This document shows positions 627 through 52,917 of a DNA stretch of 64,000 bases, piece by piece. The notes under the pieces were generated by a model, which was not told the origin of the DNA, made no database searches, and saw only the letters and a list, made by a program, of their open reading frames with translations. Position numbers and translations under genes: made by a program. Numbering within the stretch: position 1 is the stretch's first letter; each line of letters begins with the position of its first letter. This stretch comes from Limisphaerales bacterium (GTDB lineage Bacteria > Verrucomicrobiota > Verrucomicrobiia > Limisphaerales > AAA164-E04): NCBI GenBank assembly GCA_965221075.1, contig OZ244865.1, positions 2,539,605 through 2,603,604 on the forward strand, given 5' to 3'.

Positions 627-2837
627 GTGAGCCGCCTTCCTGACCAGACGCTCTCGGTCCTGGAAGCCACCCACTCCCATCCCCACCAGTGGCTCGGCAT
701 GCACCACGGGGAGCGTTCGGGCGTCCAGGGCCTGCTGGTCCGCTGCTTCTTTCCCGGCGCCCTCTCCTGCACCGTCCTGGATCCCGGCTCGGAGAGCGGA
801 TGGAGCCTCCCCCTGGCGCAAGCCGATCCGGCCGGCTTCTTCGAGGGATTCGCCGCCGACCGCCAGACGGTGTTCCCCTACCGGCTGAAGGTCGGGTGGC
901 CGGGCGGCCGCAGCTGGGAGACCTGGGATCCCTACTCCTTCCTGCCCACGCTGGGCAACGACGACCTGTACCTCTTCAACGAAGGGACCGACCGCCAGGT
1001 CCACCGCAAGCTGGGGGCGAGGTGCCGGACCGTCAACGGCATCGGAGGCATCTCCTTCTCGGTCTGGGCCCCCAACGCCCGCCGGGTGTCGGTGATCGGC
1101 GACTTCAACCAGTGGGACGGCCGGAGGCACCCCATGCGGTCGATGGGATCCTCCGGGGTATGGGAGCTCTTCCTGCCCGATCTGCCCTCCGGCCTGCTTT
1201 ACAAGTTCGAGATCCTCGACTTCCACGGACGGATCCGGATCAAGACCGATCCCTACGGATCCTCCTTCGAGCACCCTCCCAACTGCGCGGCGCAGACCCC
1301 TTCCAGAAGCGCCCACGAGTGGGGGGACCAGGAGTGGATGGAGGAGCGCTCCCGGACCGACTGGCTCTCCCGCCCCCTATCCATCTACGAGGTCCACTTC
1401 GGTTCCTGGAGGCGCGTCCCCGAGGAGGGCGGCCGCCCCCTCACCTACCGGGAGGCCGCCATCCCCCTGGTCCGCTACCTGCGGGAGAACCACTACACCC
1501 ATGTCCAGTTCCTCCCCCTCTCCGAGCACCCCTTCGAGGGCTCCTGGGGATACCAGGTCACCGGCTTCTTCGCTCCCACCCACCGCTACGGGACTCCCGA
1601 CGACTTCCGCTACCTGGTCGACCAGCTCCACCAGCACGGCCTGGGCGTCATCCTGGACTGGGTGCCCGCCCACTTTCCCCGCGACGCCTTCGCGCTTTCC
1701 GAGTTCGACGGCACCCACCTGTACGAGCACGAGGATCCGCGCCAGGGGGAGCACCAGGACTGGGGCACGCTCATCTTCAACTACGGACGCCCCGAAGTGC
1801 GCTCCTTCCTGATCGGGAGCGCCCTCTCCTGGTGCGAGCAGTTCCACATCGACGGGCTCAGGGTGGACGCGGTGGCCTCGATGCTCTACCTGGACTACTC
1901 GAGGCGGGAGGGGGAGTGGGTGGCCAACTCCTTCGGAGGGCGGGAGAATCTCGAGGCCATCGAATTCCTGCGCGAGGCGAACGACATCATCCACGAGACC
2001 TGTCCGGGAGCGCTGATGATCGCCGAGGAGTCGACCGCCTGGGACGGCGTCACCCGCCCCACCAGCCAGAACGGGCTGGGCTTCGATCTCAAGTGGAACA
2101 TGGGGTGGATGCACGACCTCATCCAGTACTTCGGCAAGGATCCGCTCTACCGCAAGTGGCACCAGAACCAGCTGACCTTCGGAGCGATCTACCAGAATTC
2201 GGAGCGCTTCAGCCTGGTCTTCTCCCACGACGAGGTGGTCCACGGCAAGGGATCCATGCTGCAGAAGATGGGGGCCGGATCCATTTCGGAGAAGGCCAGG
2301 CACCTGCGCGCCCTCTACGGTTGGATGTGGGGCTGGCCCGGCAAGAAGACCCTGTTCATGGGAAGCGACTTCGGCCAGTCGGGCGAGTGGAGCCACGAGC
2401 GGAGCCTGGACTGGCACCTGCTCCAGTACCAGGATCACGAGGGCGTCCGGAAGCTGGTGGCGGACCTCAACGCCTTCTACCTCCAGCACCCCTCCCTCGG
2501 ACGCAACGACTACGATCCCGAGGCCTTCCGCTGGATCAGCCACCAGGACCACGACGCCTCGGTCCTCTCCTTCCTGCGGGGGACCGGCCAGGGAAAGGAT
2601 CTGGTGCTGGTGGTAGGCAACTTCACTCCCGTGCCCCGAAGCGGCTACCGCATCGGCGTGCCCCGCAGCGGGCCCTGGAGGCTGGCGCTGCACACCGATC
2701 AGCAGCGCTACGGCGGAAGCGCGGTCCCCTGCCCCGCCATCGTGGAATCGGAGCAGGTCCCCTGGGACTCGCAGCCGCACTCACTGCGGCTGGCCCTTCC
2801 GGGAATGGCCACTATGTTCCTCCAGCCAGGCGACTGA
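627..2837 (+). CDS. glgB: 1,4-alpha-glucan (glycogen) branching enzyme
   Basis: 736-aa ORF with GTG start. N-terminal VLEATHSHPHQWLGMH aligns to the GlgB N-terminus. GH13 core motifs present: GVILDWVPAHF, GLRVDAVASMLY, MIAEESTAW, FSHDEVVHGK. Confidence 0.95.
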   Translation: MSRLPDQTLSVLEATHSHPHQWLGMHHGERSGVQGLLVRCFFPGALSCTVLDPGSESGWSLPLAQADPAGFFEGFAADRQTVFPYRLKVGWPGGRSWETWDPYSFLPTLGNDDLYLFNEGTDRQVHRKLGARCRTVNGIGGISFSVWAPNARRVSVIGDFNQWDGRRHPMRSMGSSGVWELFLPDLPSGLLYKFEILDFHGRIRIKTDPYGSSFEHPPNCAAQTPSRSAHEWGDQEWMEERSRTDWLSRPLSIYEVHFGSWRRVPEEGGRPLTYREAAIPLVRYLRENHYTHVQFLPLSEHPFEGSWGYQVTGFFAPTHRYGTPDDFRYLVDQLHQHGLGVILDWVPAHFPRDAFALSEFDGTHLYEHEDPRQGEHQDWGTLIFNYGRPEVRSFLIGSALSWCEQFHIDGLRVDAVASMLYLDYSRREGEWVANSFGGRENLEAIEFLREANDIIHETCPGALMIAEESTAWDGVTRPTSQNGLGFDLKWNMGWMHDLIQYFGKDPLYRKWHQNQLTFGAIYQNSERFSLVFSHDEVVHGKGSMLQKMGAGSISEKARHLRALYGWMWGWPGKKTLFMGSDFGQSGEWSHERSLDWHLLQYQDHEGVRKLVADLNAFYLQHPSLGRNDYDPEAFRWISHQDHDASVLSFLRGTGQGKDLVLVVGNFTPVPRSGYRIGVPRSGPWRLALHTDQQRYGGSAVPCPAIVESEQVPWDSQPHSLRLALPGMATMFLQPGD

Positions 2838-3018
2838 CATTTAAGCCAGTTGGATGCGTCGCAGCGCATTCCACTGTGCAGCCAGCGAGCGCAACCTGGA
2901 GCATGGACGGATCCTGCGCCTTCGCTGCCCAGGCGTTCATTCCAAACATGCAATGCGGACATGCCTCTGGAAGCGCCATGTCCGTCAGGATCCCCGCATG
3001 CAACGGCCCGGGCATCGT

Positions 3019-3412
3019 TTAGAAGTACAATTCCGGAACATGCTCTACCGCCACTTCGGGTCTGCCCTTCGGAAGCTTGTCGAACAATCGATTGAACATG
3101 GAGTCCAACCTGTTCCGCTCCAGCGGATTTGCTCTCACGTCGCCGATTCCAATTACTGAAAAGAACATCTCCAGCCCAATATATCCATGTCTATGGTATC
3201 CCCCGGAGAATTCCAAAACAAGCGCTTCCCTCCCTTCGTGCAAACAACCACATCGCATGCATCGTAGCCATCCTTTTCACTTTGTTTATTTCGACATGCG
3301 CGCTTCCTTCAAGCGCCACAATCACGCCATCATGAGAATGAAGCTTGCCTGCCTTCTTGTAGTACACATCGAGTCCGTACAATATATAATAATCGGAACA
3401 AAGAACAAGCAC
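3019..3412 (-). pseudogene. frameshifted small ORF remnant of unknown function (possibly PD-(D/E)xK/DUF559-like fold)
   Basis: Track ORFs 3191..3412 and 3019..3258 (minus) overlap and read as one protein if a frameshift near 3235-3250 is repaired (...MHAMWLFA/HEGREALVLEFSGGYHRHG...). It sits at the start of the AT-rich islet. The fold guess is weak. Confidence 0.25.
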
Positions 3413-3648
3413 AGAAAGAAGTATATGCCGCTACGGCCGTAGCGGAGATACATATATTAATTCATCGTTAGCATATAAATTACATGCGTAACTTGAAATC
3501 GTCAGTTAACCTGACGCATTCTCAATATCATCGAAATGCATCATAACTGACACTATATCCAGTTAAGACAATATGCAAAGTACAATAAAACGAGCATTAA
3601 TCTTACAAATACATTTAATTATTTGAGCAGATACACCTGAACTTACAC

Positions 3649-5214
3649 TTACTTCACTGTCACCACCAAGCCCGGCCCGCCGCAGAATCCCTTGCCACCC
3701 GGCTGGTCGGGACCGCCCACATTGCCAACATTCCCTGCCATTCCTTGAAACGACACTTTTTGAGGTTCACCAGTGTAACACGGATGACTGAACATGACAC
3801 TTGTCACTGATTCCTGCGATGTAATTTTTTTCAATTCAGAATCTTCATAACCAGCAAGAATTGTCCGCAACTTGCGAAAAGCCATAGCATTCTGCTCCTG
3901 ATCCTGAGGCATTTGCATCTTCATATAGCAGTCTTCGGCAGATTTAAAGTTCCCCAATTGAATATAAGCGAGTGCCATATTATGTAATACACCAGCACAC
4001 TTAGATGACACTTTTTTATAGCAAGAAATCGCCATTTCAAAATTCATTTGGCAGTAGTACGAGTTTCCACAATTAAACATACATGTGGAAAAACTCGAAT
4101 CTAACTCCCACGCCTTTTCGTAATCCCTAATTGCCTTTTCATGTTCATTCAAAAGTGCGTAAATATTGCCACGATTATAAAGGACCGCATAATAGTACCA
4201 TGGATGTTTCTTACGAGGGCTGTTTTCGTTAATATAATTCAAATCATTTAACGCATTATCGTAGTCCGATAGCGCTTTAGGATAGAGCTTCGCTGCTGCG
4301 TAGGCATTACCACGATAAAAGTGAATTATTAATTGTTTGCCATCCAAATCCAAACACTTCCCATAAGCAACAATCGCTTTGCATAGATGTCCGTCGTTCA
4401 TCGCCTTGTTTCCTCTTCGTAGTTGCGACTGAAAAACCTGAGACTGAGAAACCTGAGACTGAGAAACGTACGGAGCTTCCGCACGTTCAATCTTGCAAAT
4501 ACCAAGCAAATCTGGGAAAATAGTGCGCTCCGAAATATCAATCTGTTCCAGTTCATCTCGCAAGCCTTTTTTGTCATCAGCGTCAATCTCAACCTTAGAA
4601 AATTGGGTCTTTTCGATTATTGGCCGTCCAATAACGAAAACACTACGTTGGCCAAGTATGCGAAATGCTTCGTCGCCTGTTAAATCAGGTTCCCAAATCA
4701 GATAGTTCGATCCTAACCAACGCTGATCTCGGGAAAGCTCTCGTGAAAAAAGTGAATCAATACTTTCAACTTCTAATTGTCGATTTGTAATCAAGGTGTT
4801 TGGTCTTTTTTTGTCCAGAATGAACACATTGCCATTGGAATCCATTTTTTTACCGTTGCAGCTTGGATCACCACAAGCAAACCACAGCGCAACAAGCGGA
4901 TTATATGTAAAGTCGAGTAAACCTGTTGCTGCTCCAAAGTGTTGTAGCTTCGCAAGGAGTTGCATATCATCGATCGATTGATTCGAATTATTGCAGGCAA
5001 TTACTTGACGAACTCGGTCAATTAATTCATTATGATACCTGATGTACTCTTCAATAAACTGAGGATGTTCGAGGGGGATTTCATTTGCCACAAGTCTTCG
5101 AACAGCTCCCGAACACAACTTCCATTCAGCATATTCCTGTCCTCGAAAGATTTTCATGTCCAAACCTTCTGTGGCATTCTGCATGCGCTCAATATATTTG
5201 GTAAGTAACTTCAT
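3649..5214 (-). CDS. FRG-domain protein fused to TPR repeats, glycine-rich C-terminal tail
   Basis: 521-aa ORF in low-GC DNA. N-terminal KIFRGQEYAEWKLCSGAVRR and LQHFGAATGLLDFTYNPLVALWFAC match the FRG-domain signature. Residues ~270-440 show repeated TPR-like A/Y/G patterns (YRGNAYAAAKLYPKALSDYDNAL, YNRGNIYALLNEHEKAIRDYEKA, FNCGNSYYCQMNFEMAISCY). Confidence 0.85.
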   Translation of the reverse strand: MKLLTKYIERMQNATEGLDMKIFRGQEYAEWKLCSGAVRRLVANEIPLEHPQFIEEYIRYHNELIDRVRQVIACNNSNQSIDDMQLLAKLQHFGAATGLLDFTYNPLVALWFACGDPSCNGKKMDSNGNVFILDKKRPNTLITNRQLEVESIDSLFSRELSRDQRWLGSNYLIWEPDLTGDEAFRILGQRSVFVIGRPIIEKTQFSKVEIDADDKKGLRDELEQIDISERTIFPDLLGICKIERAEAPYVSQSQVSQSQVFQSQLRRGNKAMNDGHLCKAIVAYGKCLDLDGKQLIIHFYRGNAYAAAKLYPKALSDYDNALNDLNYINENSPRKKHPWYYYAVLYNRGNIYALLNEHEKAIRDYEKAWELDSSFSTCMFNCGNSYYCQMNFEMAISCYKKVSSKCAGVLHNMALAYIQLGNFKSAEDCYMKMQMPQDQEQNAMAFRKLRTILAGYEDSELKKITSQESVTSVMFSHPCYTGEPQKVSFQGMAGNVGNVGGPDQPGGKGFCGGPGLVVTVK

Positions 5215-5238
5215 TTTTAAACCATAGGAGTCTTATGG

Positions 5239-5449
5239 CTCTACCGAAAAACGTGTGGGTTAAGCGACATGGGGGTTGAGCTTGGCGAAGTCGAGCTTCC
5301 CGGCGATGAGGAAGAAGACGGTGCGGATAGTCTTGAAGCAGCGGTAGCCTCTGGCGCGACGCTTGGCGGATTGGAACAGCCCGTTGAGGGTCTCGATGAA
5401 GCCGTTGGTGCGGCAGGTTCTGGCCCAGGCTGCAATCCCATGGCCGAGC
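5239..5449 (-). mobile_element. DDE transposase C-terminal remnant (ISL3-like) with element terminus
   Basis: The minus frame after a TAG reads LGHGIAAWARTCRTNGFIETLNGLFQSAKRRARGYRCFKTIRTVFFLIAGKLDFAKLNPHVA*. The NGFIExLN...KRRARGYR...GKLD pattern is typical of ISL3-type transposase C-termini. No upstream part of the gene remains. The 21 nt after the stop (5239-5259) would be the element end. Confidence 0.55.
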
Positions 5450-5527
5450 TATCCCATGAAAGGCACGGCATGTGAGGACTCCGGGCCGATCGTAGCCTCC
5501 AGGCCAGTCCGCTATCGCACCAGGACT

Positions 5528-6322
5528 TCATTCTCGGACTCCCAGCAGGCCGGAGATGGCCTCTGCTCCTCCCCGCATCAGCGATTCCCCCACCAGCAGG
5601 GCCTGCACGCCCGCATTCCGCATCCTCTCCACATCGCCTCTGGTCCGGATTCCGCTCTCCGCTACCAGCACGATCTCGTCGCGCCGCCGATGGCCGACCA
5701 GGCTCGCGGCCAGGCGCTCTGTGACGCCCAGGTCCACCTCGAAGCGGCGAAGATCCCGGTTGTTGATCCCGATCAGATCGGCGCCCACCGCCAGGGCCCT
5801 CTCTAGCTCCGGGTGATCGTGGACCTCCACCAGCACGTCCAGGGAGGCGGATCGGGCCAGGTGGTGGAGCTGCTCCAGGAGGGGCTCCTCGAGGATGGCG
5901 GCGATGAGCAGCACCGCGTCGGCTCCGTTCTCCACCGCCTCCAGGATCTGCAGGGGATGGAGGATGAAGTCCTTGCGCAGGATGGGCAGGCTGGAAGCCT
6001 CCCTGACCGCCCGGAGGTGGGAGAGGGAGCCCTGGAAGTATCCGGCATCGGTGAGGACCGAGAGGCAGTGGGCGCCCCCCTTCTGGTACTCCCGGGCGAT
6101 CCGGGGAGGATCGTAGTCGGAGCAGATGGTTCCCGCCGAAGGGGAGGCCTTCTTGATCTCGGCGACGAGTCCCAGCGAAGCGTCGCGAAGCGCCTGGCGG
6201 AACGGCCGCCGGCCGCCCCGCGTGGCTATGCCTTCGAGCAGCGTCCCGGGCGACACTTCCCGCTGGGGCAGGGCCCGGATCTCGCGCCGCTTGTCGGCCA
6301 CGATCCGGTCCAGGATGGTCAT
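5528..6322 (-). CDS. trpC: indole-3-glycerol phosphate synthase
   Basis: 264 aa from ATG 6322 ([15 protein letters not shown]). Motifs [46 protein letters not shown] overlap with the prfB stop. Confidence 0.93.
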
Positions 6323-9288: not shown

Positions 9289-10350
9289 CTACTCCAGCTC
9301 GAGCAGACGGCGCTGCCAGCGCATCAGCCGGGGGAGGCTTCCCTTCCTGTCCCGGGAGAGGGCCAGCAGGGTCGACTTGCTGGCAATGATGGTGGGGTCG
9401 ATGCCCAGCTCTCCGGCCCTTGCGTCCCGGATCTTCCTCATCGCCTCCATCGGGGGGCCATCGCCCCTGCCCTGGCGCCTGGGCGCCTTGGGAGGCGGCT
9501 TGGGCCAGTCCTCCGAAGGCATCGCCCCCGCCGCTTCTACGCACTTGGCGAGGCCGAGGATCCGTCGCCGGGAGAACCGGCGCGGGATGTGCTTCCTCCA
9601 GCCCTTCCCCTCCCCGCAGCAGATCGAGATCTGCAGCAGCCGGTCGTGGCTCAGGACGAAGAAGGGGGGACGGTTGCACCTGCAGGCCTCCTTCTCCCGC
9701 CACCCCCACAGCTCCCGCAGGAAGGCCTGAGCCCTGGGCGCCAGATCCTTGCTTCCCTTGATCCGCCAGGGATCCTCGACCTCCTGATCCATGCTGCGGA
9801 CCGCCTCCTCGCCCAGCGCTTCGCCGACCTCCTGGAGCCACTCAAGCCGTCCCTTCCGGGCCAGCTGCTCGGAGAGGATCCGGCGCAGGGAATGGAGGTA
9901 GCGGACATCGTTGAGCGCGTACTCCTCCATCTTGGGGCCCAGGGGGCGCTTCCCCCAGTCGGCCCTCTGGAGCTCCTTCTCCAGCTTCACCTGGTGGAAC
10001 CTCTGGACCAGATGGCTCAGGCCGAACTCCTTGAAGCCCAGCAGCCGGGCGGCCCACATGGTGTCGAACACCCTGGGCCTCAGGAAGCCGTGGTGCTTGG
10101 CCAGGAGCCGGAGGTCGTAGTCGGCCGCATGGATGATCAGCCCGGCCTTTCCCAGCCGATCCCACAGGGGGGAGAGATCCAGCGGCGCCAACGGGTCGAT
10201 CAGGACCCCCTCCCCCGGCAGGGACAGCTGCAGGAGGCACAGCTTGGAGGGATAGGAGTGGAAGCTGTCGGCCTCGGTGTCCAGACCGATCCAGGGAGCG
10301 CCCCGGGCCCGGTCGAGCCACCGGGCCAGTTCCTTGCCGGTCTCGATCAC
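9289..10350 (-). CDS. rnd: ribonuclease D (DEDD 3'-5' exonuclease with HRDC-like C-terminus)
   Basis: 353 aa. Contains WIGLDTEADSFHSYPSKLCLLQLS (ExoI), HAADYDLRLL, and ALNDVRYLHSLR (ExoIII Y-x3-D). Confidence 0.8.
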   Translation of the reverse strand: MIETGKELARWLDRARGAPWIGLDTEADSFHSYPSKLCLLQLSLPGEGVLIDPLAPLDLSPLWDRLGKAGLIIHAADYDLRLLAKHHGFLRPRVFDTMWAARLLGFKEFGLSHLVQRFHQVKLEKELQRADWGKRPLGPKMEEYALNDVRYLHSLRRILSEQLARKGRLEWLQEVGEALGEEAVRSMDQEVEDPWRIKGSKDLAPRAQAFLRELWGWREKEACRCNRPPFFVLSHDRLLQISICCGEGKGWRKHIPRRFSRRRILGLAKCVEAAGAMPSEDWPKPPPKAPRRQGRGDGPPMEAMRKIRDARAGELGIDPTIIASKSTLLALSRDRKGSLPRLMRWQRRLLELE

Positions 10351-10408: not shown

Positions 10409-11191
10409 TCATCTGCAGGGCGAACTCCGGCCTGAGGCGGCGAGATCGGGAGATCCCATGCAATCTCCCCGAGTCCGGTCCCGGGGCAGGGACGAGCATA
10501 CCCCCTTCCCCTCGCCTCCGGCCTGGTCCGGCGCCCGGCGCAGCGGCTTCTTGTCCCGAAGCCGCTTCATCGCTTCCTCGAAGCTTCCGAAGCGTCCCGT
10601 CCGCTGCTGCAAGCCTGGATCGGCGTCCAGTCCGCCGGGCTCTTCGATATCGGACTTGTCGGCCACCGCCACGAGTCTGGCGATCCCCTCCTGAAGCGCC
10701 TCTCCTGCCGCCCGGCGCCCTTCCAGCCAGGCTCCGTGGGCCTGACGGCGCAGGCCGGGATGCCGGGCCCGGCCAGCCGCAGATCCTCCAGGGCCCTGCA
10801 GCCCATCTCCCAGGCAAACGCCATGATCTCGAGGAGAAGGTCCTCCAGCTCCTTCGAGAACCGCCTGCGGAACGCTGCGATGGCGCCGTGGCCGGAATGC
10901 TGGTTTCCGGCGATGCAGAGGAAGGCGACCGATTCGCAGGTCGCCGCTTCCAGCTTCCGGCTCGAGAACACGCCTGCTGCGAAGCCGCAGAAGATCATCC
11001 CCACAAGAGCCTGCGGGTGGCAGGCCTGAATGCCGCGTGGAATGCATGACGAGGGGATCGGGGCCAGCTCCAGGCGCTCCACGATGCACTTGACCATGCG
11101 CGCTGTAGAACGCTTGAGGGGGCCAGTCCTCCATCGGGGCAGCCAGCAGAATCTGATAGACGTGAACGTTCGGACCGAAGTCGTATCCCAT
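10409..11191 (-). pseudogene. IS1182/IS5-like transposase, N-terminal part, frameshifted and 3'-truncated
   Basis: Minus frames read MGYDFGPNVHVYQILLAAPMEDW..., then after a shift ...CHPQALVGMIFCGFAAGVFSSRKLEAATCESVAFLCIAGNQHSGHGAIAAFRRRFSKELEDLL (the DUF772/InsH-N-type motif), then ...ADKSDIEEPGGLDADPGLQQRTGRFGSFEEAMKRLRDKK. The DDE catalytic part is missing. The remnant abuts rnd. Confidence 0.7.
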
Positions 11192-11291
11192 GTTTGCGAA
11201 CAGCCAGCCTCGTCGAGTCGGCCCGCCCCCTCGGAGAGTGCCTCGCCGTCCGCTGCCGGGACAGGACATTATTGTGCACCGCCAGAAAAAG

Positions 11292-11584
11292 CGGAACCTG
11301 TCAATGACATTGAAACGCTTTATCCATCAACTGGCTGAGCATTTCCACGCATCGGCAGGTTTGTCGCTGTGCTGGGTGCCGCCGCAGCTCACAGCGAGGA
11401 CCGGAGGCTCATGGCCCTCCACTGCAGGGGGCGCTGCCCCCTGCACCCCAGGACCACTTAGGGTAGGGAAATGGAACCGAACACATGGCGCAGCCTGTCT
11501 GTGACTATGGAGCCGAGTTGCCAGGCTAGTGCCAGCCACTGCTGTCCGGACAGCATCAACCCGAACGTTTACCAGCATAGGCCG
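11292..11584 (+). repeat. conserved non-coding element, copy 1 (full length, with 32-bp hairpin insertion)
   Basis: Aligns by eye to 53664-53919 and, over its first ~85 bp, to 60486-60570. All three copies start at the same base (cGGAACCTGTCAATGACATTGA). No conserved reading frame. Confidence 0.85.
11423..11445. repeat. palindromic hairpin TGCAGGGGGC-gct-GCCCCCTGCA (copy 1 of 2)
   Basis: Perfect 10-bp inverted repeat. It lies in a 32-bp segment present in element copy 1 but absent from copy 2. Confidence 0.9.
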
Positions 11585-11624
11585 AAGAAGCCGCACACCC
11601 TGACCGGGGCGGGGAGGGAGTCCA

Positions 11625-13013
11625 CTACCGCCCCATCCCCTGGTCGCCCTGGGAGCGGGAGGAATCCTTGGCTTGGCGGAGATCCTCGGCCGCCCTTTCC
11701 GCCGCCAGGGCCGCCTCCCATTGGACGAGGGCCTGGTCGAACTCGCCAGGGGGGGCGGGTTTCTCCGTCCCCGGACGGGTTCGTTCGATCAGCCACCTGC
11801 GCAGGCTGGGGATGGGACAGACCAGGGAGCCTGCGTCGTTGGACTGCAGGGCTCCCTTCTGGATCAGATGCCCAAGGAACTGGTCTGCGTCCATTCCTTT
11901 CGGAAGCTTCCAGCTCCTGCTATCCGGAGCGGCTTCAATCTTCTTGTCGATGAAGTCTAGCACCCTGCTGCGGCGCAGGCCTCCATCAGCAGGCAGCTCC
12001 TCCATGACCGCCGCCACCAGGTCCTCGGCGTTTTCCATTTCGGTGCTTTGGCGGGCTTGACAGCTCTTTTTCCGGTACTTGCGTGCGCGCTTCAGCATGG
12101 AGCGCAGATCGATGTTCTTGATTTCGCCTTCGGCTGGGCCGAGGGCCCAGAAGAGAGCGGCGGCCTCGGTCCGGACATGCTGGGGCCAGCCCTCGGAACG
12201 CTCCACGACGCCGTCGGACAGGCAGCGCAACGCGTAGCCGACGCCCAGGCCGATGCGGCAGTTGACCAGCATCCGCTTCACGCAGGAGCGCACCTCCTCG
12301 CCGGCAAGGGCTCCCAGGGTGCAAACGTTGCCTATTTGCAGGCGGCTGAGGCCGGCCTCGGCCAGGGCGGCGGTGGAATTGGCCAGGCCGGCGTAGATGG
12401 GGACGATGGGAAGGCGGTGCTCCCCGAGATGGAGGGCCGTTAGGACTTCCTCGTGGGATTTCCCGACGTTCTGAATCTCGTCCACCAGGATGCAGAGGGG
12501 CTGCTTCCAGTCCTGCGGAGGAAGGACTTCCTTCAGGATGGAGAAGGATGCGGCTTCCGGGTCGGTCGCACGGGTGGTCGACCCTTCCGCTCCGATGACT
12601 CCAAGGCCAATTCTGGCTCCAGTGTTCGTGACGACCTTCTGGCGATAGTCCTTCGCCTTGGAGGGATCGATCTTCCTGATGATCTCGAGCGCCGCCGACT
12701 CCGGATCCTTGAGGGAGATCTTGTCCATTGACAGGATATGCGGGCGGTCCTTCTTCCCGTCCCATTCCTCCTCCAGGTGCGAGAGGACAGCGGTCTTACC
12801 GGCCCCGGGGGCGCCCTGTAGGACGATGGTGTACCCAGCAGCTTTCTTCTGGTTCCTGGTGCGCTTGAGCGCTTCCTGGCAGTTGGCCTCGATCAGCTCG
12901 AGGATGTCCTGGCGGCCGACGAAGGCGGGAGCGGAATCCCTGTCGAAGGGGCGGCTGTAGCTCTCCAGCAGTTCCCGGTCGTACTGTTCGCGGCGCTTCA
13001 CGGCTGTAGGCAT
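11625..13013 (-). CDS. AAA+ P-loop ATPase (AAA_16/AAA_22, ORC/ExeA/TniB-like) with unrecognised C-terminal half, array copy A
   Basis: 462 aa from ATG 13013 (MPTAVKRREQYD; the track ORF starts 8 codons upstream). Walker A LQGAPGAGKTAV, Walker B LCILVDEIQN, then RLQIGNVCTLGALAGEEV. The C-terminal ~200 aa have no motif I recognise (possible winged-helix end, PIPSLRRWLIERT). Confidence 0.85.
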   Translation of the reverse strand: MPTAVKRREQYDRELLESYSRPFDRDSAPAFVGRQDILELIEANCQEALKRTRNQKKAAGYTIVLQGAPGAGKTAVLSHLEEEWDGKKDRPHILSMDKISLKDPESAALEIIRKIDPSKAKDYRQKVVTNTGARIGLGVIGAEGSTTRATDPEAASFSILKEVLPPQDWKQPLCILVDEIQNVGKSHEEVLTALHLGEHRLPIVPIYAGLANSTAALAEAGLSRLQIGNVCTLGALAGEEVRSCVKRMLVNCRIGLGVGYALRCLSDGVVERSEGWPQHVRTEAAALFWALGPAEGEIKNIDLRSMLKRARKYRKKSCQARQSTEMENAEDLVAAVMEELPADGGLRRSRVLDFIDKKIEAAPDSRSWKLPKGMDADQFLGHLIQKGALQSNDAGSLVCPIPSLRRWLIERTRPGTEKPAPPGEFDQALVQWEAALAAERAAEDLRQAKDSSRSQGDQGMGR

Positions 13014-13077
13014 CCTGCCACCGATAGCGTCTTCCACAAGAAGCCGTACATTCCGATTGGGGCGGGGAGGGGGGCCA

Positions 13078-14463
13078 CTACCGCTCCATCCCCTGGTCGC
13101 GCCGAGAGCGGGAGGAATCCTTGGCTTGGCGGAGCTTCCCGGCCGCCCTTTCCGCCGCCAGAGCAGCCTCCCACTGAGCGAGGGCCTGGTCGAACTCGCC
13201 CGGAGGATCGGGTTTCTCCGCCCCCGGACGGGTCCGGTCGATCAGCCACGAGCGCAGGCTGGGGATGGGGAAGGCCAGCGTGTCTGCGTTGATGGGCTGC
13301 AGGGCTCCCTTCTGGATCAGATGATCAAGGAACAGATCGGCGTCCATTCCCTTTGGAAGTTCCCATCCGGTGCCTTGGCCGACTTTGGCATTCCCTTTGA
13401 TGGCGTCCAGCACCCTGCTGCAGAGGAGGCCTCCGTCAGCAGGCAGTTCCTTCATGACTGCCGCCACCAGGTCCACGGCTTTCGCCATTTCGGTGCTTTG
13501 GCGGGCTTCATAGCTCTTTTCCCGGTACTTGCGTGCGCGCTTCAGCATGGAGCGGAGATCGATGTCCTTGATTTCGCCTTCGGCCGGGCCGAGGGCCCAG
13601 AAGAGAGCGGCGGCCTCGGTCCGGACATGCTGGGGCCAGCCCTCGGAGCGCTCCACGACGCCGTCGGACAGGCAGTCCAGCACGTAGCCGGCGCCCAGGT
13701 CGATGCGGCAGTTGACCAGCATCTGCTTCACGCAGGAGCGCACCTCCCCGTCGGCCAGGGGTCCCAGGGTGCAAACGTTGCCTATTTGCAGGCGGCTGAG
13801 GCCGGCCTCGGCCAGGGCGGCGGTGGAATTGGCCAGGCCGGCGTAGATGGGGACGATGGGAAGGCGGTGCTCCCCGAGATGGAGGGCCGTTAGGACTTCC
13901 TCGTGGGATTTCCCGACGTTCTGGATCTCGTCCACCAGGATGCAGAGGGGCTGCTTCCAGTCCTGCGGAGGAAGGACTTCCTTCAGGATGGAGAAGGATG
14001 CGGCTTCCGGGTCGGTCGCACGGGTGGTCGACCCTTCCGCTCCGACGACTCCAAGGCCAATTCTGGCTCCAGTGTTCGTGACGACCTTCTGGCGATAGTC
14101 CTTCGCCTTGGAGGGATCGATCTTCCTGATGATCTCGAGCGCCGCCGACTCCGGATCCTTGAGGGAGATCTTGTCCATTGACAGGATATGCGGGCGGTCC
14201 TTCTTCCCGTCCCATTCCTCCTCCAGGTGCGAGAGGACAGCGGTCTTACCGGCCCCGGGGGCGCCCTGTAGGACGATGGTGTACCCAGCAGCTTTCTTCT
14301 GGTTCCTGGTGCGCTTGAGCGCTTCCTGGCAGTTGGCCTCGATCAGCTCGAGGATGTCCTGGCGGCCGACGAAGGCGGGAGCGGAATCCCTGTCGAAGGG
14401 GCGGCTGTAGCTCTCCAGCAGTTCCCGATCGTACTGTTCGCGGCGCTTCACGGCTGTAGGCAT
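13078..14463 (-). CDS. AAA+ P-loop ATPase, array copy B (paralogue of copy A)
   Basis: 461 aa from ATG 14463. The first ~235 aa differ from copy A at one residue. The C-terminal half is clearly divergent (e.g. KGNAKVGQGTGWELP versus KKIEAAPDSRSWKLP). Confidence 0.85.
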   Translation of the reverse strand: MPTAVKRREQYDRELLESYSRPFDRDSAPAFVGRQDILELIEANCQEALKRTRNQKKAAGYTIVLQGAPGAGKTAVLSHLEEEWDGKKDRPHILSMDKISLKDPESAALEIIRKIDPSKAKDYRQKVVTNTGARIGLGVVGAEGSTTRATDPEAASFSILKEVLPPQDWKQPLCILVDEIQNVGKSHEEVLTALHLGEHRLPIVPIYAGLANSTAALAEAGLSRLQIGNVCTLGPLADGEVRSCVKQMLVNCRIDLGAGYVLDCLSDGVVERSEGWPQHVRTEAAALFWALGPAEGEIKDIDLRSMLKRARKYREKSYEARQSTEMAKAVDLVAAVMKELPADGGLLCSRVLDAIKGNAKVGQGTGWELPKGMDADLFLDHLIQKGALQPINADTLAFPIPSLRSWLIDRTRPGAEKPDPPGEFDQALAQWEAALAAERAAGKLRQAKDSSRSRRDQGMER

Positions 14464-14528
14464 CCTGCCACCGATGGCGTCATTCCGCAACAAGCCATTC
14501 GCCCTGACCGGGGCGGGGAGGAAGTCCA

Positions 14529-15160
14529 CTACCGCTCCATCCCCTGCTCGCCCTGGGAGAGAGAGGAATTCTTGGCCAGGAGGAGCTTCTCGGCCGCCCT
14601 TTCCGCCGCCAGGGCCGCCTCCCGCTGGACGAGGGCCTGGTCGAACTCGCCCGGTGGATCGGGTTTCTCCGCCTCAGGAAGAGTCCGGTTGATCAGCCAG
14701 GCGCGCAGGCTGGGGATGAGGAAGGCCAGCATGTCTGCTTTGATGGCTGCAGGGCGCCCTTCTGGATCAGATGATCAAGGAGCAGATCGGCGTCCAATCC
14801 TATTGGAAGCTTCCAGATCCTGTGATCCGGAGCGGCTTCAAACTTCATGTCGATGAAGTCCAGTACCATGCTGCGGAGCAAGCCTCCGTCAGCAGGCAGC
14901 TTCTTCATGATCGCCGCCACCAGGCCTTCGGCCTCCCGCATTTCGTCGCTCCGGCAGGCTTCATAGCTCTCTTTCCGGTTCTTGCGTACGCGCTTCTGAA
15001 TGGAGCGGAGATAGAACTCCTTGATCTCGCCTTCGGCCAGGCCGAGGGCCCAGAAGAGAGCGGCTACCTCGGTCCGGACATGCTGGGGCCAGCCCTCGGT
15101 ACGCTCCACGATGCCGTCGGACAGGCAGCGCAACTCGTAGCCGGCGCCCAAGCCGATGCC
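14529..15160 (-). pseudogene. array copy C': C-terminal-half-only cassette of the ATPase gene, frameshifted
   Basis: Homology to A/B begins abruptly at ...IGLGAGYELRCLSDGIVERTEGWPQHVRTE (about 15160). There is no Walker A/B region upstream. A 1-nt deletion near 14746 (gatgg-ctgcagg versus gatgggctgcagg) splits it into track ORFs 14693..15568 and 14529..14732. Confidence 0.8.
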
Positions 15161-15476
15161 GTCTCCGCCAATGATGGTGGAACACCTGCCCGCCCTCATT
15201 CCGTGTTCCACTGGCAAGTTCGAGGACATGAGCACGGGCAAGGATGCCATCACGCCCCTGGGGCGACAGTCGCGAAGCGCCCCGGAGCCGGGATAGGTGC
15301 TGGGATGCCGGTCCTTGATCCCGAGGGGGCAGCCATTCCTGTCCAAAGGCTGGCGCAGGCGTCCGTCCCTACTGGCATCCGGCTCCCGAGCCGAGTCTGG
15401 ACGGGCCCGGGCATGCCGTTTCGGCTCCCGAGCCGCAGGCTGGGCTCGCCGGTTGCCCGGAATCCTCCCCCATTCG

Positions 15477-15507
15477 TCCCTGCAGGGGGCTTTGCCCCCT
15501 GCAGGGA
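15477..15507. repeat. palindromic hairpin TCCCTGCAGGGGGC-ttt-GCCCCCTGCAGGGA (copy 2 of 2)
   Basis: Perfect 14-bp inverted repeat with the same core as 11423-11445. It lies on the other side of the ATPase array. Confidence 0.9.
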
Positions 15508-15751
15508 TGAGCCGGACTTCTCCAGCCAGAGCGCAGGGAAATGCCGAGCCATCCCGTTCCGGAACCATCGGATGGATGCCCGCAATCCAACGGAAGGGGA
15601 CGTTAGGAGCGCCACGGCCTCATTGAAGCATCACGCAGCCAGCAACGGAGAAGGGGCGGGAAGCGGGCGCCGTCCGGGCATCTGAGGTTGAATCCAGCGC
15701 TACCTGATCCCAGAATGGCTCCCCGGGCCCCTGCGGCGTTCCTTCGGTTGA

Positions 15752-16519
15752 ATGGGAGATTTCAAAGTCCAGTCCGACATATACGAAGGTCCCCTGGATC
15801 TCCTGCTTCACCTGGTGAAGAAGCAGGAAGTCGACATCTACCAGGTCGATCTGGCCCGGCTGGCTGCCGAGTTCATCGCCTACGTGGATCGCATGCGGGA
15901 GCTGGATCTCGACATAGCCGGGGAGTTCGTGGTGATGGCGGCCACCCTGATGCAGATCAAGAGCCGGGAGCTCATCCCCCGGGAGGATCGCGATCCCGAA
16001 CAGGAGGACGAGGATCCGGACGATCCCCGCTACGAGCTCATCCGGCAGCTGGTGGAGTACCGCAAGTTCAAGGACGCCGCCGCCGGTCTGGAAGGCATGG
16101 AGGGCGAGCAGGAGCAGGTGTACGGGCGCAGTCCCGCACGGCCGGATCTCCCTCCCGTCTCCCTGCCCCCGGACCTGGGAGGGACGACCGCTTTCGCCCT
16201 GCTTCAGGCGGTCAACTCCATCCTCTCCCGCGTCCGCAAGAGGGAGGAGGATGCCCGCCACATCCACGCCGACCCGTTCACCGTCAGCGAGAAGATCCAG
16301 CTCATCCGCGACACCCTGCTCCGGAGCAGCCGGGTGCGGTTCTCCCAGCTCTTCTCGCGGGTCCGCACCCGCCCCGAGGTGGTCTGCACCTTCCTGGCCA
16401 TACTGGAGCTCATCCGGCTCCACGTGATGAGAGTGGCGCAGGCCGAGCCCTTCGGGGAGATCGAGCTCGAAGCGAGGCCTCCCTCGGCTGAGGAACTCCA
16501 GAGCGTTCCGTCCGGCTGA
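15752..16519 (+). CDS. scpA: segregation and condensation protein A
   Basis: 255 aa. YEGPLDLLLHLVKKQEVDIYQVDLARLAAEFIAY is the ScpA N-terminal signature. Confidence 0.9.
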   Translation: MGDFKVQSDIYEGPLDLLLHLVKKQEVDIYQVDLARLAAEFIAYVDRMRELDLDIAGEFVVMAATLMQIKSRELIPREDRDPEQEDEDPDDPRYELIRQLVEYRKFKDAAAGLEGMEGEQEQVYGRSPARPDLPPVSLPPDLGGTTAFALLQAVNSILSRVRKREEDARHIHADPFTVSEKIQLIRDTLLRSSRVRFSQLFSRVRTRPEVVCTFLAILELIRLHVMRVAQAEPFGEIELEARPPSAEELQSVPSG

Positions 16520-16527
16520 TCCCCTCA

Positions 16528-17205
16528 ATGGATCTGGACCTGGTCATCGAATCCCTGCTCTTCGCCTCGCCCAAGCCCCTCTCGGCCCCCGAGCTGAAGG
16601 AACTGTGCCACCGGTCCGCCGAGCACGCCGGAGAGGAGGGGGCCTCCCTGCCGCGTCCCACCGCCCGCCAGATCGACAAGTCGCTCCAGTCCCTGGAGCA
16701 GCGCTACCAGGAAATGGGGCGAAGCTACCGGCTGCACTGCGTGGCCGGCGGCTGGCAGTTCGTCAACCGGACCGAGTTCGCTCCCTGGATCCGGGCCATG
16801 CTGGGGCGCAAGCCCCGGCCGCCCAGGCTCTCGCAGCCCGCTCTCGAGACGCTGGCCATCGTCGCCTACCGCCAGCCCCTGACCCGGGCCGAAGCGGAGC
16901 ACATCCGGGGCGTCTCGGTGGACGGGGTGGTGCAGACCTTGCTGGAGCGCAACCTGATCGAGCCCCTGGGCAGGGCCGAGGTGGCGGGTCGCCCCATGAC
17001 CTACGGGACCACCGGCCAGTTCCTGGAGTACTTCGGCCTCGCCTCGCTGGAAGACCTCCCCGACGCCCCGGAGCTCCAGCGGATCGAGGCGCCCTCCCCC
17101 GGACCTCCCCCTCGGGAGGAGGAAGCCGGGGACGCCCCGGAAGCAGCCCCGGAAAACCATGCCGAGGACAGCAGCGATGGCTCCCGAGAAGACCCCCCGG
17201 CTTGA
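16528..17205 (+). CDS. scpB: segregation and condensation protein B
   Basis: 225 aa. IESLLFASPKPLSAPEL, LETLAIVAYRQPLTRAEAEHIRGV, GRPMTYGTT. Confidence 0.9.
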   Translation: MDLDLVIESLLFASPKPLSAPELKELCHRSAEHAGEEGASLPRPTARQIDKSLQSLEQRYQEMGRSYRLHCVAGGWQFVNRTEFAPWIRAMLGRKPRPPRLSQPALETLAIVAYRQPLTRAEAEHIRGVSVDGVVQTLLERNLIEPLGRAEVAGRPMTYGTTGQFLEYFGLASLEDLPDAPELQRIEAPSPGPPPREEEAGDAPEAAPENHAEDSSDGSREDPPA

Positions 17206-35913: not shown

Positions 35914-36362
35914 GGCTGTGGTAAACGAAATCGTTCGGACGGAGCGAGAGCAAGCCTAGGATTTATCCTCGTGCTGGTCAACTGCCCTTGAATCTTCGCT
36001 CGTTTCGACTGCCGTTGTCCAGCGAATTGCTGCTTCTACTCAGACAGCCGGGGATAGACCCAGCAATGGCAGCTCGGAATCCGAGACGCAGACAGACAAC
36101 ACCGTGTCGCCGTATGATCGTTGGCCATATTCCCTCCAGAGCAGTCCGGGAGCGCAGGAGGCAGCGCCCTCTGCAGAAAAGAGCTGGAAGCCTCCGGCTT
36201 CAGCAGGGGCAGCAGCGTCGCGCCCAGAATAGAAACCGTCATGCGTAGGATTGTTCCAACAATCGACGGAACCAGTGCTCGATGTCATCGACAGGGTCCA
36301 GGGCCCGGAGCTTTGGTACGCATCCAGTCAAAGCCGTAGCCCGCTTCCGGCCAAAACACGCC

Positions 36363-37532
36363 TTACAGCCAGTCGAGCAGACCTCGATCGGGCAGCACAT
36401 GGCGCAGGAATTCGTCCGCTGGCAGGCACCACACACCGTCGATCCGTGTGCGCTTCGAACCCCGATGCAGCAGGACAGCGTCCGCTTCCGGGTACTCCTC
36501 GCGAAATGTCCTCAGTGACCGGAGATCTGCGGTGTGCACTGCTCGGGAGTTCTTAACTTCGATGGCCTGCAGGCCATAGTCGCCGTACACTATGAAGTCG
36601 ACCTCGGCACCGGTCCGCGTGCGCCAGTAATACAGTACTGACCGGCGGCTCGAATAGGCCCCCCATGCACGGAGGTGCTGGGCGACCAGACCCTCCAATG
36701 CCTGCCCGTCCATCTCGTGAAGTCTGTCGAGCGGGCCCCTCGGGCGCAGGGAACGGAACACTCCCGCGTCGAACAGGTAGAACTTCTCCCGGCGTACCGT
36801 GCTGCGTTTCGCACGCTTGCGGAACACGGGCAGGCGAAAGGCGAGCAAGAGGTCTTCCAGAATGTCCAGGTAGCTTGACACGACCTTGCGCGTCACCTCG
36901 CACTCCCGCGCCACCGCAGAGACATCGAGTCGCCCTCCGTGAGAGAAGGCGATGATCTCGAGAAAGCGGGCAAAGTTCCCGACGTTGCGGGTGAGTCCTT
37001 CAGCGCGCACCTCCTGATCCAGGTAAAGGCTGGCATAGCCATCCAGGACGCCCACCGGGTCGGCCGCTCCGGTCACCAGAGGCAACAGTCCGTTTGCAAG
37101 AGCTCTAGGGAGATCGAAGCCGGGCAGTTCTGCCGCCATGAAAGGGTGCAGGGTCCGCTGGAGTGCTCTGCCGCCCAGCAGGTCCACGCCGCCCTGTCGC
37201 AGCTCTCGCGCACTGGATCCCACCAGAACGAACCGTGGCGGACTCGGCTCCTCGAGAACTGCATGGACGACGGTGAGAAGTTCCGGGACTCTCTGAATCT
37301 CGTCGATAACCACGGTAGCCGCTCTCGACGACCCTGCTAGTAGCTTGCGAAGCCGTTCGGGCCTCGCTTGCAAACTGCGATGCAGCTGAGGCTCAAGCAG
37401 GTCCAGGAACAAGGCATTGGGAAGCTGGTGCCGCGTCCAGATGGTTTTTCCAGTACCACGCGGACCGAACAGAAAGCAGCTCTGTGCCGGTATGGAGAAA
37501 AACCTCCTTACTACTTCCATTTTGCGCCCCAA
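36363..37532 (-). CDS. AAA_14-type ATPase with C-terminal DUF4143 (PD-(D/E)xK-like) domain
   Basis: 389 aa. Walker A LFGPRGTGKT, Walker B VVIDEIQRVPEL. C-terminal GAEVDFIVYGDYGLQAIEVKNS is a D...E-x-K nuclease-like motif. Confidence 0.88.
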   Translation of the reverse strand: MGRKMEVVRRFFSIPAQSCFLFGPRGTGKTIWTRHQLPNALFLDLLEPQLHRSLQARPERLRKLLAGSSRAATVVIDEIQRVPELLTVVHAVLEEPSPPRFVLVGSSARELRQGGVDLLGGRALQRTLHPFMAAELPGFDLPRALANGLLPLVTGAADPVGVLDGYASLYLDQEVRAEGLTRNVGNFARFLEIIAFSHGGRLDVSAVARECEVTRKVVSSYLDILEDLLLAFRLPVFRKRAKRSTVRREKFYLFDAGVFRSLRPRGPLDRLHEMDGQALEGLVAQHLRAWGAYSSRRSVLYYWRTRTGAEVDFIVYGDYGLQAIEVKNSRAVHTADLRSLRTFREEYPEADAVLLHRGSKRTRIDGVWCLPADEFLRHVLPDRGLLDWL

Positions 37533-37758
37533 ATCGGTCCTTCCAGGGAAGATTTGGCAGCTGCCCTATGACTTGTCAATGATCGACAGAATCTCAATAC
37601 CCATCGCCCGACACGTGGATCAATCCGACACGGATGGAGCCGTCCCAGCCAACCAGAGATCTGGCGATGCTCTACCTGGGGTGCATTAGCCAGCGCTTCT
37701 CGGCCTCGATGCATCAAGCAGGACACACCATTGGTGCCAAATAGAAGACAATCTATTT

Positions 37759-38799: not shown

Positions 38800-39418
38800 G
38801 CGATATCAGGTGTTTCCGCTAGACCTTTATTATTCCCATCGGGCTATGTCTCCAAAACCTGAAACTCTCCTATTACTTTCTACCTGTGACCGTGTCAACC
38901 TTTCGAAGGATGATCCATCGTACAGCACCGGAATCGGCCGCGAACGGCCAAGCCGTTCGCGGCCGAGATCCTGCCAGATCTTGGACGATCTCGAGCAGTA
39001 GTACAGCAGGAATAATGGATGGACGGCGATCCGTTGTGTGGGAATAGCTGCCATCGTGATCTTCATTCGAACGCTTTTGTTGGTTGCTCAACTCGATATC
39101 CGAGGCATCCCTGTCTTGACAAATGTCAGCCACCTTCCGCCAGGGACCAGACAGCGTATCAGGATCGTGCGCTTGATTATCTGTCGTATCAAGCAGAAGA
39201 ACGACGTGATGATGTTTCGGACCTATGAGACTGTCGTGGATTCGTATTACCAGCACAGAAACGGAATCCTTGCTTCATGTGAACTCCGATCCGGACTCGG
39301 GCAGACATCCGATTGGAGTTGTAACTGACTGGCTCTGAAAGGTGAATCTTGTCATTGGATCAAGACGGATTTCGTCGCTCTCGGCACTACGGGATCCACT
39401 CAAGATCGCGTTGGCAAT

Positions 39419-51400: not shown

Positions 51401-51774
51401 GCCGCCCTCTCCGTCCGTTGCCCGGATCGGCTCCGGTGCGGGAAGCCGCCGCAGCGCGCCACGAAGACAGGAGTCCTACCCCTGGCGGGAGACGCCCCGA
51501 CCGCTAGCGGCTTCTTCCCGCCGCCAGAGCAGCTCTCTCGACGCGGCACGCCTGAAGCCCTGACGGCAGGAAGCAGGCCATGCCAGTCCATCCTGCCCGG
51601 CAGGTTCAGCTCTGCCGCCGTCCTTCTCAGTCCATGTCGAAGGACCATTCCTGGATTCGAATGGAAGAAGCCAGCCTGGGCTGGTTTGCCAGCAGTTATG
51701 GCAAACCATATTTCTGATCAGCTGCCAACATCTCTAACAACTCGGACTTTTGTCACAGGCACTAAATATAGATT

Positions 51775-52824: not shown

Positions 52825-52863
52825 AACAAAAAAACTTTGAGCATCCTGTCATATTAAACGAAC

Positions 52864-52887: not shown

Positions 52888-52917
52888 GCGTGGGTTACCG
52901 TCTCTTCCAAGAAACTC

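Follow-up and report, generated by a model that had tools for sequence, protein, structure and literature searches.

A tandem array of ORC/STAND-like ATPase genes in a Limisphaerales genome, probably shaped by gene conversion and unequal exchange among paralogues

How can two neighbouring copies of a gene be almost indistinguishable along one half and clearly divergent along the other? This question is raised by a locus of a Limisphaerales bacterium (Verrucomicrobiota; assembly GCA_965221075.1), which we analyzed within a window of 64,000 nucleotides (nt) of contig OZ244865.1 (positions 2,539,605 to 2,603,604). Three units related to a P-loop ATPase, two intact genes (A and B) and a truncated copy (C'), lie there head-to-tail on the minus strand, flanked by an RNase D gene (9289-10350) and by scpA/scpB (15752-17205). 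An initial annotation had given coordinates for A and B and an offset of about 1450 bp, and these are confirmed (Table 1), the spacing of the three copies being 1450-1453 nt in a repeat search. It had further proposed that the locus follows the logic of pilE/pilS or vlsE, with C' as a promoterless donor. We consider it probable that the array belongs to a multi-copy family of stand-alone ATPases that evolves by gene conversion and unequal exchange, in a concerted birth-and-death mode, and involves no programmed switching.

We aligned the units with MAFFT and followed their identity in a 50-nt profile. Positions 13025-12312 of A and 14475-13762 of B differ by exactly three substitutions in 714 nt (A positions 12978, 12596 and 12474), two of them synonymous and one leading to I139V; the earlier estimate, made by eye, was three substitutions in ~710 bp. 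The Walker A (GAPGAGKT) and Walker B (LCILVDEIQ) motifs do lie inside this tract. At the overall rate of the pair, the binomial probability of three or fewer differences in 714 nt is 4e-20. The tract is bounded on both sides, since the A and B units diverge again just upstream of the ATG. The contrast between near-identical 5' halves and differing 3' halves is therefore real, but the drop is stepped and not a single break: identity falls to ~94% for ~270 nt (to about codon 325), then to ~82%. The ~94% zone, in which C' is the outlier among the three copies, probably represents an earlier and longer conversion tract. Over their full length, the two proteins share 88.7% amino-acid identity. A maximum chi-squared permutation test on A and B is significant (p<=0.001), with its optimum at about alignment column 1009, and a GENECONV-like permutation test gives p=0.0005 for A-B as well as for D-E and F-G, two other pairs of paralogues in the same genome (see below). 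The observation is thus confirmed, and it is significant.

The simplest account of such a pattern, kept as the null hypothesis in the initial annotation, would be a plain decaying duplication without recombination, where the 5' half is conserved by stronger purifying selection on the ATPase. Computed separately for the two halves, the ratio of nonsynonymous to synonymous divergence (omega) agrees with it in all paralogue comparisons, as the C-terminal half evolves faster (0.5-0.9) than the ATPase half, that is the nucleotide-binding domain (NBD; 0.33-0.49). However, purifying selection on a protein leaves synonymous differences, and the synonymous divergence (dS, Nei-Gojobori) between A and B is 0.012 over codons 1-235 against 0.227 over codons 236-462. 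The latter value equals the divergence of copies at different loci (0.19-0.28), while the NBDs of different arrays have a dS of 0.26-0.39, and the NBD is therefore not intrinsically slow at synonymous sites. It follows that A and B are old paralogues, the first 714 nt of which were made nearly identical very recently. A decaying duplication is refuted by this contrast, and the significant discordant signal along the 3' halves also argues against it; we leave it hardly any probability. The original preference for segmental gene conversion over a uniform duplication finds support in the same dS values and in the mosaic structure of the 3' halves.

This mosaic needed a test of its own. When the GENECONV-like test is applied to the 3' halves alone, the A-C' and B-C' comparisons are marginal (p=0.03-0.06, uncorrected), and a triplet runs test was therefore required. 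Informative sites among A, B and C' are clustered, the outlier being C' at alignment columns 845-1040, B at columns 1060-1140 and A at columns 1145-1290, and they form 68 runs where 91.9+/-5.4 are expected (p=2e-4). The three 3' halves, including that of the truncated copy, are a statistically supported mosaic, as had been suspected by eye.

Could one unequal crossover have produced all of this, leaving B as a hybrid with a 5' part from A and a 3' part from an ancestral full-length C, with no gene conversion at all? Unequal exchange between tandem repeats gives exactly such a topology, with the hybrid in the middle, B is closer than A to C' over columns 1145-1290, and, in gene coordinates, only 64 nt separate the start of C' from the A/B breakpoint. 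However, the 3' half of B should then match C' at ~99.6%, as the 5' parts of A and B match each other, whereas it does so at ~85% overall and at 94% at most in any 50-nt window. Moreover, B groups with A and not with C' in columns 845-1040, and a variable patch in B groups with that of genes F and G, at a different locus. Several events are thus required whichever model is adopted, and we regard a single crossover as distinctly unlikely.

The third unit does consist of a 3' half only, but its limits differ from those first described: homology to A and B runs from ~15150 (A codon ~255) and not from ~15160, to the stop at 14529, and begins 64 nt, not ~50 bp, 3' of the A/B breakpoint. The sequence upstream of 15150 matches no member of the family. 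A 38-nt repeat lies exactly where the homology ends, which suggests that C' may have lost its 5' half in a repeat-associated rearrangement; the second copy of this repeat is found 55 nt from the 53.7-kb copy of a repeated element that also occurs just downstream of the array. By tblastn, C' is read in two frames (15139-14741 and 14738-14532), and the 1-nt deletion reported near 14746 is present, but in a short C-run (CCC->CC). Sister assemblies of this organism at ENA display comparable indel noise: L003 and L004 differ by two indels in 15 kb, dnaJ is split in L088 and intact in L087, and a paralogue has 262 aa in one version (P0033) and 429 aa in the other (P0121). On its own, the frameshift therefore argues only weakly for decay, and frameshifts in these assemblies, including those of C' and of paralogue F, may be sequencing errors. 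The secure sign that C' is defective is structural, namely its 5' truncation. Compared with A and B, C' has an omega of 0.88-0.91 overall and of 1.3-1.65 in the lid, which indicates relaxed constraint as expected of a pseudogene, and the near-invariant P400 is replaced by L.

The same indel errors, together with the position of the C' frameshift in a short C-run, could raise the suspicion that paralogous reads were mis-assigned during assembly or polishing, so that the consensus was homogenised or the units are chimeric. Yet a separately assembled ENA contig of 5765 bp (L001) matches window positions 10411-16175 at 100% identity and reproduces the array base for base, and the array is unchanged across the three available assemblies (the genome and two ENA assemblies). 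Long reads also easily span units of 1.45 kb, mosaics of this kind occur in many metagenome-assembled genomes (MAGs) from other projects and phyla, and an artefact leaves unexplained why sharp boundaries fall at conserved motif blocks. An artefact appears extremely unlikely to us.

The locus is not isolated in its genome. This 3.3-Mb genome, which its PSCyt/PSD/DUF1501 genes and nearest homologues make look verrucomicrobial or planctomycete, has at least ten members of the family, and A/B/C' is one of at least three tandem arrays. Array 2 comprises D (P0005) and E (P0003) in tandem, and array 3 comprises F (frameshifted, P0006), G (P0004) and, at its end, H, a 5'-only fragment that keeps ~160-200 codons; singletons are present too, for example P0025 between priA and pdxJ. 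Near-identity is again confined to parts of these genes: D and E are 96-100% identical over the first ~250 nt, G and H over the first 300 nt, while F and G are 98-100% identical near the 3' end (columns 1100-1350) and only 89.5% in the 5' half. A translation alignment of eight paralogous units shows that the fully replaced patch noticed between A and B is real (KKIEAAPDSRSWKLP in A versus KGNAKVGQGTG-WELP in B) and that it exists in two types, type 1 in A, C', D and E (DFI(D/E)KKI..APD.RSWKLP) and type 2 in B, F and G. Since the patch type of B is common to F and G, it reflects exchange among existing alleles and not new diversification.

Beyond this genome, a profile search recovered at least 844 clusters (50% identity) at E<=1e-30. 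Among species-representative genomes, the hosts are MAGs labelled as Verrucomicrobiae, Alphaproteobacteria (Paracoccaceae, Thalassobaculaceae), Arenicellales, other Gammaproteobacteria and Ca. Poriferihabitaceae, often with 4-7 copies per genome (loci L006-L084; proteins P0084, P0100, P0103, P0116 and P0118). Some of these MAGs are demonstrably associated with sponges and most others probably are, judging by their naming; Poriferihabitaceae, for instance, are named in a sponge-metagenome report (PMC12859430). The presence of the family in several phyla suggests that it spreads horizontally in connection with the habitat. Nothing specific came out of literature searches on the family in sponge symbionts or on expansions of AAA_16 proteins in such bacteria. 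Recurrent neighbours of family members are limited to housekeeping genes (CoA-transferase, SDR, MaoC) that are in synteny among related MAGs, and to a DNA methylase in one alphaproteobacterial sub-lineage.

Many loci consist of tandem or inverted pairs accompanied by fragments of either end. In other genomes, fragments next to full copies keep the 5' end as often as the 3' end. Across the loci, a 3' fragment lies directly upstream of a full copy at L007 (a Verrucomicrobiae MAG), and 5' fragments are found at L003, L014, L051, L064, L075, L077 and L082. The comparison of loci thus largely reveals no preferential retention of 3' cassettes, which speaks against the donor scheme. Likewise, either half of a tandem pair can be homogenised. 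At L020 (OY729418), dS is 0.005 in the NBD and 0.22 in the C-terminal part, while the opposite arrangement, 3'-identical and 5'-divergent, is seen at L014a (0.15 and 0.00) and at L059b (0.81 and 0.08).

A more general pattern emerges when identity is plotted in 20-codon windows for the 27 within-genome pairs with at least 85% overall identity, which come from eight genomes (this one and seven other MAGs). Mean identity is 93-96% over codons 61-320, and often 100%, then falls over codons 321-400 (mean of 69% at codons 341-360, minimum of 39%, with a hotspot at codons 341-380), and a second dip affects codons 1-60 (mean of 82% at codons 41-60). Both dips are clear in this genome and in at least six of the seven other MAGs, whereas 11 between-genome pairs of similar overall identity have a flat profile of 84-93%. 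At L013/L014 (OY729512), L050/L083 (OZ220493), L047/L081 (OZ241878) and L020, the cores are 100% identical over ~780 nt while the modules formed by codons 1-60 and 321-400 are just 40-65% identical. Reassortment is most visible in OY729512 (Thalassobaculaceae), whose five copies share one core type and combine N-terminal types a and b with winged-helix types a and b in all ways, plus a winged-helix type c. Within-genome paralogues therefore have a near-identical core (codons ~61-320) and two recurrent, reassorted modules (codons 1-60 and ~321-400). A homogenised ATPase joined to a variable C-terminal part, as initially described, is a real tendency of the family, but what generates it is bidirectional homologous exchange among full-length paralogues.

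What kind of protein carries these modules? For the product of gene A, Pfam gives weak matches to KAP_NTPase, AAA_22 and AAA_16 over the first ~195 residues, of which KAP_NTPase alone reaches the gathering score, and no match in the C-terminal half. An alignment of 44 sequences is conserved along its whole length, with the motifs FVGR (G33 and R34 invariant), GAPGAGKT, VDEIQ, LPIVP, SEGWPQH (W276 and P277 invariant), LPxGM and CPIPSLRxWL. The AlphaFold2 (AF2) model built from this alignment (mean confidence, pLDDT, 89.6; pTM 0.85) predicts an alpha/beta NBD up to residue ~235, a helical lid, a winged helix and a long C-terminal helix. The A/B breakpoint (codon ~235) accordingly falls at the end of the NBD, and the 3' half, which the initial annotation took for a diversifying sensor or winged-helix module, does contain a predicted winged helix but is made of lid plus winged helix and would not be an independent module.

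In Foldseek searches against the PDB, the model matches Cdc6/Orc1 structures best (7tjh_I, 1w5t_A, 2qby_A and 1fnn_A; E from ~4e-8 to 1e-6), followed by the NB-ARC modules of plant NLRs and by archaeal sso1545, with TnsC ranked lower. A sequence-profile search of the PDB gives P-loop-level matches only (best E=2e-4 over 56 residues). AAA_16 matches 41 of the 44 members and NACHT 13 of 44, mostly below gathering scores. STAND and AAA_16-like ATPases are defined by an NBD with Walker A and B motifs, a preceding hhGRExE-like motif, a following helical domain with a GxP motif, and a winged helix. The family has the corresponding features: FVGR, GAPGAGKT, VDEIQ, GWP, the domain order of the AF2 model and the structural matches to NB-ARC and ORC. 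The effector and repeat-type sensor domains of STAND proteins are absent from most members, which have 410-470 aa and no extra Pfam domain, although a minority have ankyrin repeats or extensions. The protein is therefore predicted to have an ORC/Cdc6-STAND-type P-loop ATPase fold without effector or repeat sensor domains. It is also predicted to be soluble and cytoplasmic, and not a surface antigen; the N-terminus has no hydrophobic leader, although no dedicated signal-peptide predictor was run.

The resemblance to ORC/Cdc6 initiators is at the level of the fold only, as the TIGR02928 model scores 12.6 bits (E=0.045), far below its cut-off of 181, and the protein does not belong to that family. 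At a single one of the loci checked (L018 4848-7220, in an alphaproteobacterial MAG), a family gene stands beside dnaN-recF-gyrB, the usual origin-proximal cluster, a curious setting given the ORC/Cdc6-like fold. Among NCBIfam models none is significant, the best being RdrA (E=0.008, P-loop region only). The initial assignment to ORC/ExeA/TniB-like AAA+ proteins is thus borne out by AF2 and Foldseek with respect to an ORC/Cdc6/STAND-like fold, but not with respect to a transposition context: a TniB/IstB/ExeA-type transposition ATPase is not supported, there being no conserved adjacent transposase across 79 loci and the flanks being housekeeping genes. The protein most likely works as a switch or sensor driven by NTP, whose specificity might reside in the winged-helix patch and the N-terminal segment, this function being a guess.

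Does selection maintain the variable parts? For intact pairs, omega is higher than in the NBD both for the lid (0.6-1.1) and for the winged helix (0.55-0.9). In pooled 20-codon windows of the six intact paralogues, it exceeds 1 at codons 301-320 (1.95), 381-400 (1.18) and 441-460 (2.39), which are raw values from pairs that lack mutual independence and are hence suggestive only. Two readings stand for the persistence of the variable modules, selection on the one hand and a mechanical mismatch barrier on the other.

These data bear on the idea that C' is a silent, promoterless cassette copied in a programmed manner into the expressed genes A and B while the ATPase module stays constant. C' indeed has neither the ATPase half nor an obvious start and shares mosaic segments with both A and B, the L007 fragment occupies a comparable position, and the winged-helix patch is the divergence hotspot of the family. 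However, two intact genes and a single fragment do not make a layout of one expression site and many cassettes. In array 3 of this genome, the terminal fragment keeps only the 5' part of the gene and the homogenised tract lies at the 3' end; across loci, 3' fragments do not outnumber 5' ones, and 3'-identical/5'-divergent pairs occur. C' resembles a pseudogene (omega ~0.9, 1.3-1.65 in the lid, P400L), and the patch of B is a pre-existing allele type of F and G. The array is identical in all three assemblies, and orthologues in a relative are stable between samples (members of its 90% cluster differ by 1-3 residues, all outside the variable patch), although consensus assemblies would hide rare variants. 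There is no G-quadruplex (G4) motif between 10400 and 16100, the nearest one being inside scpA at 16150, and the predicted fold is that of a cytoplasmic ATPase, not of a surface protein. The pilE/pilS or vlsE logic of the initial annotation is consequently not supported, and we deem programmed cassette variation very unlikely. Diversification by a diversity-generating retroelement (DGR) was also considered: transitions dominate the substitution spectrum and arise from all four bases, DGR-type mutagenesis being ruled out by this lack of adenine bias, and no reverse transcriptase is present among the genes of the 9-18 kb region.

We thus return to gene conversion and unequal exchange among paralogues as the favoured explanation. 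Two features expected of concerted evolution are found here, similarity of tracts at synonymous sites with significant breakpoints, and discordant relationships among at least three copies; that gene conversion can both homogenise prokaryotic multigene families and diversify genes is established (PMC8223754; PMC12046097). The exchanges would be ordinary homologous recombination, with RecA-type gene conversion and with unequal exchange creating and trimming the arrays. They may start and resolve in the highly conserved sequence on either side of the variable modules (FVGR/GAPGAGKT, R314-R321 and LPxGM). The modules themselves might persist because they are too diverged for conversion, because different specificities are selected for, or both. 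C' would be a copy left without its 5' half by rearrangement, decaying and still passively exchanging sequence, and not a dedicated donor.

Several points weigh against this explanation or against a functional extension of it. Recombination is deduced from sequence patterns only, and these fit conversion in either direction, from A to B or from B to A. The assemblies that agree on the array are possibly not independent. Mean pairwise omega is below 1 (0.5-0.9) and exceeds it in small windows alone. When open reading frames (ORFs) within +/-4.5 kb of the 79 loci were clustered, no conserved partner gene or operon appeared, and no PADLOC 2.0 model is significant, the best being LeoBC (E=0.004, 14 bits, P-loop region only).

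The features of the locus are gathered in Table 1. In the public collection, gene B is called as a protein of 483 aa from an upstream GTG at 14529. A consensus scan of 11200-15800 detects no sigma-70-like promoter and no terminator in the spacers, but is uninformative at 65% G+C. At the gathering threshold, Rfam finds no RNA family in the window, and the only hit of a tRNA scan, a tRNA-Arg at 40543, has no relation to the array. Pfam-checked genes of the 9-18 kb region are RNase D, an insertion sequence (IS) fragment of IS5 type, the array and scpA/scpB; another ORF of the region is one that we take by eye to be a prephenate dehydratase. The array had been described as bordered by IS debris, which is correct on the side of the DUF772 fragment, but no recognisable IS is present on the other flank (15160-15750).

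Table 1. Coordinates of the array, of its subdivisions and of adjacent elements in the window
Feature	Position	Strand	Description and basis
IS5-type transposase N-terminal fragment (DUF772) flanking the array	10567..11097	-	Pfam PF05598, E=1.3e-6
Repeated non-coding element	11292..11562	+	~270 nt, immediately downstream of gene A
Gene A (P0001)	11625..13013	-	462 aa; ORF and translation; exact protein match in public collection
Gene A, C-terminal helix/tail	11628-11768	-	Long C-terminal helix in AF2 model
Gene A, predicted winged helix	11769-12053	-	Codons ~321-415 (AF2 ~325-412); AF2 model
Variable winged-helix patch, A	11898..11966	-	Codons 350-372; type 1: DFIDKKIEAAPDSRSWKLP
Intermediate zone in A	12042..12311	-	~94% identical to B 13492-13761
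Gene A, predicted helical lid	12054-12308	-	Codons 236-320; AF2 model
Gene A, predicted NBD	12309-13013	-	Codons 1-235; AF2 domain boundaries
Recent conversion tract, copy in A	12312..13025	-	714 nt, 3 substitutions vs B
B/A spacer	13014..13077	-	64 nt, belongs to repeat unit (unit alignment)
Gene B (P0002)	13078..14463	-	461 aa from the ATG homologous to the start of A
Variable winged-helix patch, B	~13351-13416	-	Type 2: DAIKGNAKVGQGTGWELP
Recent conversion tract, copy in B	13762..14475	-	Partner of the A tract
C'/B spacer	14464-14528	-	Equivalent of the B/A spacer
C'	14529..~15150	-	5'-truncated copy corresponding to A codons ~255-462 (part of lid, winged helix, tail)
38-nt repeat	15159..15196	-	Abuts end of C' homology; second copy 53953-53990, inverted, 33/38 identical (blastn)

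The repeated element downstream of gene A has further copies in the window by blastn (53664-53897, 73%; 60486-60561, 87%; 36241-36299, reverse), which border low-G+C stretches or lie close to their edges. Other copies are found at L005 11513-11614 and 13248-13320, downstream of the array-2 genes, and at L003 699-740. The core of the element, of ~76 nt, reads CGGAACCTGTCAATGACATTGA...GAGCATTT..ACGCATCGACAGG. The element has no match in Rfam and might represent a miniature inverted-repeat transposable element (MITE) or the end of an IS, a site of recombination or a regulatory sequence. The low-G+C stretches themselves (0.45-0.60 against ~0.68-0.70 elsewhere) lie at ~2000-6000, 36000-40000, 51700-53700 and 60500-64000 and contain long ORFs with a G+C of 0.42-0.57 (3649-5214, 37759-38799, 51775-52824 and 60811-62850); they are probably horizontally acquired islands. 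One of their ORFs (36363-37520) encodes another P-loop ATPase (GPRGTGKT), and a small ORF next to the repeated element at an island edge (53355-53663, minus strand) resembles, by eye, a DUF433-type antitoxin.

How does the family compare with known systems? Concerted evolution by gene conversion is documented in bacteria, in general (PMC8223754) and with long-read evidence in M. tuberculosis (PMC12046097), and the non-reciprocal recombination between paralogues, the tracts of near-identity with sharp boundaries and the mosaic genes are all alike; what is particular here is that the unconverted modules recur at the same position across many genomes. With Neisseria pilE/pilS and Borrelia vlsE, the array shares segmental non-reciprocal transfer between homologous copies and one partial copy, but it differs in having no dedicated cis element, no surface product, no within-population variability seen, and fragments of either end. 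With ORC/Cdc6 and the archaeal and bacterial AAA_16-type ATPases, the family has in common an AAA+-type NBD, a lid, a C-terminal winged helix, the N-terminal FVGR and a GxP-like GWP; unlike ORC/Cdc6, it has marginal sequence similarity and, except for the locus beside dnaN-recF-gyrB, no link to replication genes.

A closer likeness is offered by NLR/STAND gene clusters, which undergo birth-and-death with gene conversion in plant R-gene clusters and in the fungal NWD/HNWD genes het-d/het-e (PMC1805685, PMC2873952). In both cases there are multi-copy paralogues of a STAND-type NTPase, some in tandem, with exchange within and between loci, an NTPase part that is conserved or homogenised beside a variable part (there, the recognition part), and truncated pseudogenes in the arrays. 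However, the variable parts here are a short N-terminal segment and a winged-helix patch and not LRR, WD or TPR repeats, the proteins are bacterial and without effector domain, and the likeness rests on the pattern of sequences, not on immune function or positive selection. One can imagine that sponge-associated bacteria of several phyla typically possess an NLR-like repertoire for recognition, in which conversion among dispersed and tandem paralogues keeps the core uniform, two short specificity modules persist as distinct alleles that are reshuffled in combination, and truncated copies are passive reservoirs of module variants. Each genome would in that case encode a small combinatorial set of sensors for phage, mobile-element or host-derived targets, but we hold this to be a rather unlikely possibility.

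The array is a clean and statistically solid case of gene conversion between tandem bacterial paralogues, and its mechanism is a known one, not a new variation system. The part of interest is the large unnamed family of ORC/NLR-like ATPases to which it belongs, with a uniform core and modules reassorted at two fixed positions, a signature that in plants and fungi is that of recognition or immune receptors. If the winged-helix patch does set target specificity, the family would provide a compact bacterial model of NLR-type repertoire diversification by recombination, and would be a candidate factor in interactions of symbionts with their phages or hosts.

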